The position numbers and the translations under genes were made by a program. A stretch of DNA of 64,000 nucleotides, from the NCBI GenBank assembly GCA_964187785.1, contig OZ076409.1, positions 11,038,001 through 11,102,000 on the forward strand, in the 5' to 3' direction. Below the pieces are notes generated by a model that saw only the letters and a program-made list of their open reading frames with translations, had not been told where the DNA came from and made no database searches. This DNA comes from Amphiscolops sp. MND2022. Taxonomy: Eukaryota. Shown in pieces: positions 34,701-38,987 of the stretch; positions within the stretch are counted from its first letter, which is position 1; every line of letters begins with the position of its first letter.

Positions 34701-37700
34701 ATGGATTTCTTCCAAGGAAGCATACCGCCTAATTTTATCTCCTTCCTTTTAGGGAATGAAAATACCGAGGAAGGACAAACACCAGCCTCTGATTCCCACA
34801 TCCAGTCTACACCGAATGTAATGCCATCTCCACCGCCATTCCCTTCCCTCAGAGCCCCCATCTCTCCCAGCAGTACTGACAGTAACGTCGATGTCACTGC
34901 ATATGCTGAAGAAAGAGTCAGGGTTTACGAGCACATTCAGGGGTTGACTTCAACTCCGAATATCGACTTAGCCGACAAAGTTTCGAGAAGATTGGTGAGT
35001 CTGAAGAAGCCAAGGGAAGAGAGCCAACAGAGGCCAGGGAGGGTGCTACCAGCGTCTCACCCATCAATCCGATCCAAACTGATCCGATTTCCCCAAACAT
35101 TCGTGCCAGCACCCCAACTCCAGGGACTTCCAATATCCAGCTGGAGATGGATTTGACCCAGTTGGAAAGTGGCCTAAAGGTTGCTACTTCCTCTCGAACC
35201 ACGTTACCAGAATTACTGCCTGCCGGACATTCTAACAATGAAACGTCTGCAGTTTTTTTCCTCCAGCACGAGACTGACGATAGTTCGTCCTTTTGTGATG
35301 CCCCAGAGCTTCCCCAAGGAGAAACCAAGGTGCGGTTCCTAGACGGGGGAACTGAGACAGAAGAGACTGGGGATGGGGCAAGTCAGCTTAGCTGTCCCGA
35401 GTTATACAGCTTTATCCCTGCACCCCACAACCCATCATCGAGTGAAGAAGACACCCTTACTCATGGTCCCAAGGACTCAACTGCTGAATCTAGGCCCGCT
35501 CCCTCAGGTCCATCTCACCCTGAATTGAGGGAGTTATCTGGACGGAGTAGGGCTATTTTGAAACAATATTTTGATGAAGATGCCACAACCGTCTCTCTTC
35601 CTCTAGGCCATCGGACTGTCGCTTTCACGGAGCCACAGGTTTTCCACCTCCTCCGTGTTCTTACTGACAAGACGTTGCAAATGTCTTATACGACCATGGA
35701 AAAAATGGTGTTAGGTGCAGTCAGAGGAGCCCCAGTTACGGCCGAGTCTCGTACGGACCATTTCAAAATCAGGCGAAGTCACAAACTCCTCATCCACGAG
35801 ATCTCAGTGATATCAGCGATGGATCGCAGAGTAACGACGATTCTGGCCCAAGTACGGATTCTGCCGGTGACCCCAATACTGAGAGCGAAGATGGGGTTTT
35901 CGATTCCCCCAACGAGACTGACAGTTCTGCAGAAATGGCCCTAATTTCTCAGGCTTTCAAAGAGCCTAACGTGGTTGAACCTGATCCGACCAACCAAAGA
36001 GTAGTAGATGTCGGCCGTCAGAGCGAGGGTCATGAGTCGACTGGGCAATCAAGCTTGGATGCAACATTGTCAGAGTTGCGTTACCAGGAAGTACCGCGTC
36101 CAAGCGAGACTCGTAAAGAGTCCAAAAAGAAGCGTCGCGGGCCCACTAGAGGGGTCCCCATGAAGGAGGAATTCTTTGCGAAGATTGGGTGGACCCGATC
36201 TTTCATCTCCGGGCCAGCCGACCCGTTACACAATCCCCATATGGTCTGGTGCCATATCTGTAAGAAGAATTTTTCAGTGAAGACCAAAGGCACTTTGGAG
36301 ATTCTACGACATCACTGGACAGAAAAACACTTGCGCAAGGACCAGAGATGGCGCTATGAACATCTGAAAAGCGTCCATCCTGTTACTGGTAAGGTGCAAC
36401 ACCGGGTGAGGGGCAGAAACGGCAAAGTTCTGACCAAGATAGAACTGGCTAAAGAACTCCCTCTGTTCATACATGCTGAGTTGGTTGATATCGGGGAACG
36501 TTTCCCCTTTTACGACGATTTCGTCAAAGGAACAGCGACCACCCTTGTAACTCCAGCGTCTCGTGCCAAGACCCAGATTCACCTCATCGCAGATTTTGTG
36601 CAGCATCAGGGAGACCTTTCTATTTTGCGGCGAATGTGGTCACAGGTCGGCTCCCTAACCAACTACCAAGCCAGCTACTGCGATTTTGACTGGAGTGAAG
36701 AGAGAGTCTCGGTTGGTAGTTTTGCTTTTTTCCTTTTCACTACCGAGGTGCAATGTAAATATCCGATTTAATATTCCTATTTTCTTTTAAGGCGATCTTC
36801 CAGCACATCTTCAACTGTGCCATGGAGGACATGGCAGAACAGATAGCGGCAACACAGTGCTTTGGCCTTGAGTACGAACGGGTTGGAGTCAACAAGCTCA
36901 TGTCTGTGAGATTTTGGAAGGGAGACTCACTGTGTAGAGTCTTCGTTTGTCGAAGTGGGCTTCCTTCAGCTGACTTGACAGGAGAATTGGGGTCCCTTTC
37001 CAGATTTCTCTCGGTCGTGTCCACCAATGCTGACATAGTTGCCTGTTCCGGCTGCCCCGTTGAGCTGATTTGTACCAACGACAGATGTGCACTATTTCCA
37101 CGAGCAGTACAGAGCTGTTTTCGATTCGAACATTTGGATCTGCAGACCATGATGCGCAAACCCACTTACAGTGTGTTCGGCAGAATCGACTTTTTCTCCG
37201 TGTTGAAGAGTTTACTGGTGTCCTTAGGATCTGCTGCCGATGTGGATTGGGCCATGCAATCACCCGAATTACTTCAAGTTAGTATCTTTCCTTTCACACG
37301 TTGATAGTGTTAACCAGTACACAGGACTCACTGTTTAATAGTGGTCCATTTTAGGCTATTTCCACTTGCAAACTGAATTTGCCCGATCTCCCTGGTCTCT
37401 GCCGTGACTTGTCAAAAAACTGGAAAGCAGTGCGTTCCTTTTTGACCGCTCACACTCCACATCAAGGCATGCAAGGGGTTCACAACCAGGTAAGGATTCT
37501 CTTCGGGCCTTTTGAATTTCAATGAGTTGGTTTCCAAGTCATGGGTTAATGGATCGGTGATATCGGTTGCATGTGACTTACTTAGATCATGTTACAGGTT
37601 CAGAGTTTTGAATGGTCCCTCATCTGCGACACCTTCTTTGTTGTGAAATTGGAATTCTTCCAACGCATTATCAGCGACTGTAAGTATACGGACTATTTTG

Positions 37701-38987
37701 GATTTATCACTGTTCGCTTCTAGTTTCATATTCCAAAACCTTGAATCCTGGTAGGGCAGTAAGCCCTGTTTCCTCGGTTGGTCATTTAGGCGTACAGTTG
37801 GGTTTTTTCATGTGGTCGGTTGTGTTTCAGACGTGTCCAGTTTCGTTGTCAACCTTCAAGGCAGACGAGATGCTACTTTCTTCCTTTGCGGGGAAGTCTG
37901 CCGATTCATCTCCAAGTTGTGCTCCCGTTGTTATCTGCCCGAGACGATCCCTGTCGAGAAAGATTGGTTCCTCTTGCTCGGTTTCGCCGTCAGTGAAGGC
38001 AAGTTCCTTACTGAGGAGGACTTCCTGGTTCGACTGCGCTTGGTGAACAAAGTAGCAACTGCAAGTAAACAGAGTGCTGAAATCGTCCACTTAAATAAGA
38101 AGTCTGAGAAGGCTGCAATTGAGAAGACGGCGGATGAGGCAACTTCCAGTTTTGCCAGGGAAGGCCTCCACTTCGTACAGTATCTCTTGAAGGAGATTCT
38201 CAATCAGGCTGGATTACGATCAGAGATTGTGAAGGGGTTGGCAGCTTTCGACCCTTTCATTTTATTCAAAAGACCTTCAGAAGTCGGCCTTCGTCACTTC
38301 GACTTGTTATACGCTACCTTCCAACATCGGTCTTGGGTCTCATCTGCTAACGAGGATGCTTGCCGGGAGGGGTACATTGCCCTATTGGACCATCTTCGAG
38401 TGAACTACCCTCCTGACTTCGATCTCCTAGAGAATTCCAAGGACCTCATCGACTTCCTTATGGGACTAGAGTTCTTCCAGACTCATGAACATTTGCTCTA
38501 TTTGTTCAAATTGTGTTGTCTGTGTTTGACCAGTTCCAGTCCTCAGTATCCTCCTGTGTTATTTGGGAGTGTAGATACCACTGGATATCGTGGACGCTTT
38601 ACTGATTTGGTCTTGCCTTGTCAAAGTTATCTTTCTTCCGTTCCTGATTCCGTCTCTGGTTGCGTAACCGATGCCAATTTGGATAAATTTTCGCATCTCA
38701 GTGCTACCTTCGAGCAGTCTGCTTTTGGTGCCGATTATGACCCGTGGACTTATGTTGATGTGTTTGGGCGATCGAAAATTTACAAGAGCTTATTGGCTTC
38801 ATATAAGCTTACTACATCCATCTCTGTTGTTCGCTCAGTTCGCTTGGAGGAGAGGAGTGTTTCATCCATCCCCGATGAGTCTGCCTTGAAGATTCCTTCT
38901 AAGTTGCGAAGAAAAAGGCAGGGTAGCAGCAGTTCAAGTCTTTCCTCAAGTTCTAAGAAGCCTGTCCAAGGTTCCTCTAAAGACTAG
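34701..38987 (+). CDS. Antisense multi-exon gene, BED-finger / hAT-transposase-like (~1300 codons; two frameshifts in this copy)
   Basis: Exons 34701-36711 (frameshifts ~34980 and ~35775), 36792-37277, 37355-37489, 37598-37679, optional 37724-37750, and 37831-38987. All introns are GT-AG with compatible phases. WCHIC...RHHWTEKH finger at 36247-36330. Confidence 0.75.

Follow-up and report, generated by a model that had tools for sequence, protein, structure and literature searches.

In a 64,000-nucleotide (nt) stretch of the Amphiscolops sp. MND2022 genome (assembly GCA_964187785.1, contig OZ076409.1, positions 11,038,001 to 11,102,000 of the forward strand; hereafter the window, to whose positions all coordinates refer), we analyzed a gene that lies antisense to gag and pol within a long terminal repeat (LTR) retrotransposon of 16.3 kb on the minus strand (31159-47474). 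Comparison of copies in the 1.07-Gb host genome indicated that this predicted gene has five introns and is conserved in a large family of Gypsy-type LTR elements. The same comparison pointed to at least four exact intron losses, two of intron 3 and one each of introns 2 and 4. We consider it probable that the whole picture is that of a captured five-intron gene whose introns are protected by its antisense orientation and are occasionally lost exactly.

Introns of the antisense gene

The sequence-only reading of this DNA had placed four or five short introns within 36712-37830, opposite to gag-pol. We found four phase-compatible GT-AG introns in that interval on the plus strand, conserved in 100 loci, and a fifth (intron 0, 34546-34716) outside it, so the earlier list was incomplete (Table 1). 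Two sets of sequences were compared: a close set of 30 copies, including that in the window, which were 91-100% identical, and a divergent set of 100 loci from the same genome, hand-picked from the top-match lists of five own-genome searches, whose last exons were 29-89% identical. In the close set, introns 1-4 had GT at 119 of 120 donor sites and AG at 116 of 120 acceptor sites, and their phases joined the flanking open frames. Frame-shifting indels shared between copies sat in introns or 3' of the stop codon, and exon indels were private to single copies. Exon diversity was concentrated at third codon positions, the ratio of nonsynonymous to synonymous substitution (dN/dS) was 0.02-0.19 for the three long exons in six pairs, and 18 of the 30 copies had no break over 35.78-38.98 kb.

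Among the divergent loci, 323 of 357 scored introns ended exactly in GT..AG at the boundary projected from the protein, where about 1 in 256 would be expected by chance; the other 34 were decayed copies or projection errors, not separated case by case. The introns occupied the same codon positions in these loci, as had been expected of family members, while their interiors diverged and their lengths fell in all three phases. Conserved positions and exact GT..AG ends exclude random indels differing among copies. With pyrimidine-rich 3' ends, the intervals also match spliceosomal introns in their GT-AG ends, compatible phase, conserved position and exact presence or absence. Most of 120 database open reading frames (ORFs) covering the zinc-finger exon (66-99% identical) reached V-S or V-G at the intron-1 boundary and then stopped or diverged; the few that read past the boundary rejoined the next exon. 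Pol was antisense to the gene and downstream of it in 96 of the 100 loci, and on the same strand in none (0/100). Gag, pol and the sense accessory frame ORF-X were single frames without such introns. The antisense gene lies within the region covered by the genomic RNA but does not run into any other coding frame.

The donor of intron 0 was found in 77 of the 100 loci (14 had no anchor and 9 no donor match). Its lengths, 144-171 nt, fell in all three phases, and 72 of 77 loci had an acceptor AG. An in-frame ATG preceded the donor in 75 of these 77 loci; another, just inside the acceptor, was likewise present in 75 of 77. In pol-bearing elements, intron lengths ranged from 64 to 192 nt. Many lineages (L031-L180) had one or two introns of about twice the usual length (140-190 versus about 70 nt), including several that had lost another intron, and some introns of pol-less cassette derivatives (L171-L173 and L181-L200) were enlarged to 453-1012 nt. 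An alternative acceptor at 37754 was rejected because it gave the wrong phase and an immediate stop.

An optional 27-nt micro-exon giving two isoforms had also been proposed. By our identification, the sole 27-nt phase-1 candidate is 37724-37750, inside intron 4. It is frame-neutral, as claimed, and stop-free, and its AG and GT were kept in 30 of 30 close copies. However, its diversity (pi 0.093) was that of introns (0.046-0.102) and not of exon positions 1-2 (0.002-0.034), it encodes four different peptides among the close copies, and 964 of 2000 shuffles (48%) of the intron interior gave a comparable candidate. Of six more distant intron 4s tested, four had no candidate and two had different ones, and most outgroup intron 4s (64-78 nt) are too short to contain it. 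Its use would also require an upstream intron of 44 nt (43 nt in 16 copies), whereas the shortest in pol-bearing loci is 64 nt. On these grounds the candidate was rejected, and we regard a gene that has five introns by way of an optional micro-exon, with two isoforms, as most improbable. The two conserved in-frame ATGs flanking intron 0 appear to be the better two-isoform candidate.

Intron losses and the proposed role of orientation

The strongest support for the intervals being introns is their exact absence at the predicted junctions in some loci. Intron 3 was exactly absent from 21 of 98 scored loci, intron 4 from 13 of 99 (with one more ambiguous by 5 nt), intron 2 from 2 of 99 and intron 1 from none of 98. 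In a quick maximum-likelihood tree of the last exon (65 rows, with 35 near-duplicate rows dropped and 4 short rows skipped), the intron-less loci formed four groups, two lacking intron 3, one lacking intron 4 and one lacking intron 2 inside the intron-4-less group. Each was nested among intron-bearing sisters, with Shimodaira-Hasegawa-like approximate likelihood ratio test (SH-aLRT) values of 93-99. Exon 3 of the intron-3-less loci L060 and L063 was 68-73% identical to that of intron-bearing sisters and 56-59% identical to that of the other intron-less clade, which argues that the two intron-3 losses were separate. Weighing against our reading as a whole, the loci were hand-chosen from top-match lists, so the fractions do not measure population frequencies; the tree was built quickly, from a single exon of a recombining family; and splicing, promoter and expression are all inferred from the DNA.

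In the genomic RNA, the introns would appear as CT..AC. By established splicing rules this is invisible to the spliceosome, which would explain why they persist: they would not be removed and would be copied in each round of retrotransposition. The claim that antisense orientation lets an intron-bearing gene travel intact thus agrees with the retention of five introns beside intron-free sense ORFs, but the exact losses of introns 2, 3 (twice) and 4 go against its strict form, and protection by orientation appears to be incomplete. The premise that sense introns are lost on retrotransposition is likewise not absolute: Ogre retains such an intron (PMC4408406), and among forward-oriented globin vectors about half kept theirs (PMC6775231).

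Orientation might instead be an accident of capture, in which a DNA transposon inserted backwards, its introns stayed, and neither introns nor protein matter to the spread of the element. Intron-less lineages do thrive, one clade having supplied 19 of the sampled loci, so an individual intron can be dispensed with. Yet the dN/dS values disfavor such an accident for the protein, splice sites are kept while intron interiors diverge, the gene occupies the same position in 96 of 100 loci, and no terminal repeats or target duplication were noticed around it; we therefore think this explanation quite improbable. A closer competitor accepts real, antisense-protected introns and holds that all losses were deletions at the DNA level, through microhomology-mediated repair or slippage of reverse transcriptase (RT), with spliced antisense mRNA never re-entering the element. 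It is still disputed whether reverse-transcribed mRNA or DNA repair is the route of intron loss, and one study prefers microhomology over reverse transcription in metazoans (PMC3698931). The longest repeats at the junctions, 4-5 nt in sisters of both loss clades, belong to intron 3, which was lost twice; for intron 2, the sister of its loss clade has a 3-nt repeat. Both would be compatible with microhomology deletion. Moreover, adjacent introns were never lost together: L147 and L150 lack introns 2 and 4 and have kept intron 3. By contrast, intron 4 had no junction microhomology (0 nt in 50 of 50 loci) yet is missing with nucleotide precision from 13 loci of one clade; without a spliced-RNA template, this is difficult to account for. 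At the protein level, two database entries also read through the intron-4 junction (neither has a close match in the host genome, the best being 40-42% and 29-31% identical), and losses at introns 2-4 with none at introns 0-1 show the 3' bias expected of reverse transcription, on few events. Deletion alone is thus a possible account but not, in our judgment, the likelier one.

Under the orientation-protected reading that we prefer, intron 4 was likely lost exactly through a copy of spliced antisense mRNA, and introns 2 and 3, with their 3-5 nt repeats, may have been lost by the same route or by microhomology deletion. Either gene conversion by cDNA or a template switch onto co-packaged antisense mRNA would explain the loss of intron 4. 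Being of the same polarity as minus-strand DNA, spliced antisense mRNA could, if co-packaged, be used as a template by the RT of the element. Tentatively, and with the thought that it is rather unlikely as a complete account, we suggest that co-packaged spliced antisense mRNA serves as the RT template in plus-strand synthesis and writes junctions back, and that the cargo is a disarmed hAT transposase, whose deeply diverged and freely exchanged alleles act against host silencing or rival elements. If the template-switch reading is true, the family would be a natural record, in thousands of copies, of RT-mediated intron loss. Because one five-intron gene with known junction microhomology occurs in very many copies within an element that encodes its own RT, a census can separate the two routes of loss. 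A first look gave 6,126-8,920 candidates, figures that do not represent copy numbers.

Encoded protein, transcription and known parallels

Exon arithmetic in unbroken relatives gave a protein of about 1,290 codons, in which a variable low-complexity N terminus is followed by a basic stretch, a CxxC..H..H finger and a predicted RNase H-like domain, and the C-terminal part is helical. The AlphaFold model of the RNase H-like exon consists of a helix, then three strands, a helix, a strand and a helix. Foldseek placed Hermes at ranks 1-3 of 350,542 chains (E 0.07-0.11), and VIA-align placed it first of 48,161 (Z 6.2, rmsd 3.1, 103 aligned); Atlas leads for a zinc-finger query were ZBED5/FAM200-like (0.81-0.83). 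The predicted order of zinc finger and RNase H-like core, with Hermes as top structural match, resembles that of hAT transposases and their ZBED5/FAM200-like derivatives. Unlike them, the protein has no sequence-level match and no match to the dimerization domain, its second acidic residue is apparently glycine, and an LTR element, rather than a pair of terminal inverted repeats, encloses the cassette. Nearly all family members have E at the end of strand 1, and almost all of about 100 loci have (S/T)G at the end of strand 4, where hAT ORFs of the same genome have D. With positions placed by eye, no D-D-E catalytic triad was found, and the protein is apparently without catalytic residues.

An origin from a DDE transposase is quite likely, and a hAT origin specifically is less so. 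Several results count against the hAT assignment. The link is weak, neither structural match being significant (Z below 8, with the next rows within 1); half of the RNase H-like model is of low confidence; and the catalytic positions were placed by eye only. A second Atlas query led to Transposase_21 and RAG1, not hAT, and the last-exon model (mean pLDDT 77) had no Foldseek match and a best VIA-align Z of 5.8, to helical hairpins only. Pfam searches gave no family, hAT or other, for the antisense exons at E 0.1, nothing common to 41 last-exon homologs, and zf-BED only at E 0.11. Family profiles scored no better than reversed controls on 30 own-genome hAT loci with PF05699, and no intact donor transposon was found.

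A PDB sequence search with two exon profiles returned nothing under E 0.3, and the hAT dimerization domain PF05699 had no Pfam match in the 41 members. A search for a donor with PF14291 found nothing, its control also being silent, and none of 8000 candidates was a longer homolog of the last exon, which is weak evidence. No terminal inverted repeats were seen among the longest inverted repeats of the window, to which no dedicated search was applied. The pol-less loci L171-L173, considered as a free-standing donor, were read as derived: they share the same substituted motifs, one group keeps a pol remnant, and, like the other pol-less derivatives (L181-L200), they form part of a repeat unit exceeding 20 kb. 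At several loci this unit is 99% identical, and it includes an 88-bp satellite.

We propose that an ancient capture, likely of a hAT-type DNA transposase, gave rise to the gene, and that its product has likely persisted as an accessory protein that binds DNA without cutting it. Such a disabled transposase, likely retained for DNA binding, might act in regulation, anti-silencing or targeting. If so, an RNA-based element carries an apparently disabled DNA-transposon protein that purifying selection maintains and whose alleles are far more diverse than pol.

The gene would be transcribed from its own promoter in the spacer that it shares head to head with ORF-X. A 15-copy alignment revealed conserved non-coding motifs in this spacer (about 830 nt) and the 5' end of the gene, over 33.9-34.7 kb. 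Among the spacer blocks are what we take to be a CCAAT-like box and repeated AA(A/G)ATGGC motifs, and intron 0 contains a conserved palindrome that is presumably ETS-like. The spacer is likely a promoter region, and an internal promoter of the antisense gene is plausible. Alternatively, an antisense promoter in the 3' LTR could drive the gene, as for HTLV-1 hbz, with the spacer motifs serving ORF-X. Antisense LTR promoters are known (PMC10186651), and the spacer has to serve ORF-X as well. The LTR, however, ends 1.5 kb upstream of the gene, LTR and cassette recombine apart, and conserved motifs occur within intron 0 as well as in the spacer toward the antisense gene, so an LTR promoter seems unlikely.

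Antisense accessory genes and the orientation principle are already known. The brtn gene of Boty-like Gypsy elements (Botrytis and Sclerotinia) is a multi-exon gene. Like the gene described here, it is antisense between pol and the 3' LTR (PMC7264820, PMC8365987); the gene here encodes a different, larger protein with a predicted RNase H-like fold. Plant Ty3/Gypsy elements carry antisense ORFs between pol and the 3' LTR (aORF-3R), including maize Grande gene23, rice RIRE2, Retand (Transposase_28/TRP28) and Tat (plant mobile domain, PMD) (PMC7264820, PMC11963269, PMC4408406); Grande gene23 has its own upstream promoter (PMC7264820). The resemblance lies in place and orientation, presence in nearly all copies, and a transposase-related, probably DNA-binding product. 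The features that define aORF-3R (antisense, 3' of pol, in most copies, conserved) are seen here in 96 of 100 loci and in the dN/dS values. By contrast, the gene here has about 1,290 codons with five introns, whereas the accessible part of PMC11963269 does not mention the word intron; a second, sense ORF lies between the antisense gene and the LTR; and the available text of PMC7264820, PMC11963269 and PMC4408406 describes neither exact intron losses nor allele shuffling. No Pfam match to TRP28 (PF04195) or PMD (PF10536) was found in the antisense gene.

HTLV-1 hbz, another antisense retroelement gene, yields spliced and unspliced RNAs with different N termini (PMC10186651), which resembles the two ATGs around intron 0. 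Unlike the gene here, hbz is driven by the 3' LTR, overlaps viral genes, and has one intron and a bZIP product. Reverse-oriented beta-globin lentiviral vectors follow the same orientation principle, reversal preventing intron loss in packaging (PMC6775231); they differ in being engineered and having no evolutionary record of leakage. For antisense accessory genes, the portions of PMC7264820 and PMC11963269 available to us give no established function in any described case. Our literature search, which covered few subscription papers, found no account of such an element with a hAT-like cargo or with exact loss of antisense introns.

Module exchange and the host element

The antisense cassette recombines freely among pol and LTR backbones, as incongruent divergence shows. 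In 14 pairs of loci, integrase was 99-100% identical and the last exon 53-64%, and the rank correlation of the last exon with RT was 0.04. L095 (upstream of L056) was 94% identical to the window over 31159-34372 and 55% in the last exon; L002 had a cassette 99% identical to that of the window, and the LTR was not shared. Across L031-L090, the modules with unrelated divergence were the LTR with the gag N terminus, ORF-X, the antisense cassette and pol. Because exchange of the cassette is independent of the LTR, its matching to a single LTR type is unlikely.

Table 1. Features of the element and its antisense gene (positions in the window)
Feature	Position	Strand	Basis or remark
Target-site duplication, left, 5 bp	31154..31158	.	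same 5 nt beside both LTRs
3' LTR, about 1.84 kb, TG...CA	31159..32998	-	alignment to 5' LTR
ORF-X, sense single-frame accessory ORF, about 261 aa	32910..33695	-	homologs
Non-coding spacer, ORF-X and antisense gene divergent	33696..34529	.	15-copy alignment
Predicted first coding exon, ATG + 4 codons + 1 nt (16 nt)	34530..34545	+	in-frame ATG
Intron 0, 171 nt, phase 1	34546..34716	+	second in-frame ATG (34701) just inside 3' end
Long exon: variable low-complexity part, basic stretch, CxxC..H..H zinc finger	34717..36711	+	
Intron 1, 80 nt, phase 0	36712..36791	+	present in 98/98 scored divergent loci
Exon with predicted RNase H-like fold	36792..37277	+	AlphaFold model
Intron 2, 77 nt, phase 0	37278..37354	+	present in 97/99, exactly absent from 2/99 scored loci
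135-nt exon	37355..37489	+	
Intron 3, 108 nt, phase 0	37490..37597	+	present in 77/98, exactly absent from 21/98 scored loci
82-nt exon	37598..37679	+	
Intron 4, 151 nt, phase 1	37680..37830	+	present in 85/99, absent from 14/99 scored loci
Last exon: helical domain, basic/serine-rich tail	37831..38987	+	
Pol: protease, RT, RNase H, integrase	39213..44522	-	Pfam matches
Gag frame, zinc knuckle	44510..46228	-	starts within 5' LTR, reads through primer-binding site
Primer-binding site	45625..45636	-	complementary to host tRNA 3' end
5' LTR	45637..47474	-	LTR alignment
Target-site duplication, right, 5 bp	47475..47479	.	matches left duplication

The two LTRs differed by 11 mismatches and 3 gap nt, both with TG...CA ends and with the 5-bp duplication outside. 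The domain order of pol by Pfam (protease-RT-RNase H-integrase) is that of Gypsy elements. The strand of the element is fixed by the primer-binding site behind the right LTR, where 12 nt adjoining the LTR are complementary to a tRNA 3' end; tRNA-Leu(CAG) was called at 1 of 4 loci checked. A tRNA-like 3' end matching this primer occurs in a long tandem array with a period of about 296 bp (G000:C8:35.59-35.65 Mb), and the primer-matching pattern has 808 matches genome-wide. No polypurine tract was met before the 3' LTR (32999-33030) in the window or in the 14 of 14 relatives shown; in all of them a pyrimidine-rich coding stretch ending in CAG/CTG adjoins the LTR. This weakens the label of a typical Ty3/Gypsy element but not that of a Gypsy-type pol.

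Between the pol stop (39213) and the left LTR lie two extra genes head to head, the antisense gene (34530-38987) and ORF-X. Each LTR contains the first 190 or so gag codons and the last 30 or so ORF-X codons. The LTR-borne part of gag was 34-97% identical among relatives and was matched in 14 of 20 loci; pol was not so variable. ORF-X, a conserved frame with an acidic stretch and a CxxC motif, was matched in 20 of 20 upstream loci. It has 199 database homologs, of which none of the 120 listed has a Pfam family or a name, and itself had no Pfam match at E 0.1. No obvious dedicated route for its expression was seen besides the shared spacer or splicing. The copy in the window is broken: the long antisense exon is frameshifted near 34980 and 35775, and a stop codon near 42500 interrupts pol within RT. 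Its pol also has a short in-frame duplication between RNase H and integrase (41047-41361), and a tandem duplication of about 4.97 kb lies directly to the left of the element, at 22228-31067.

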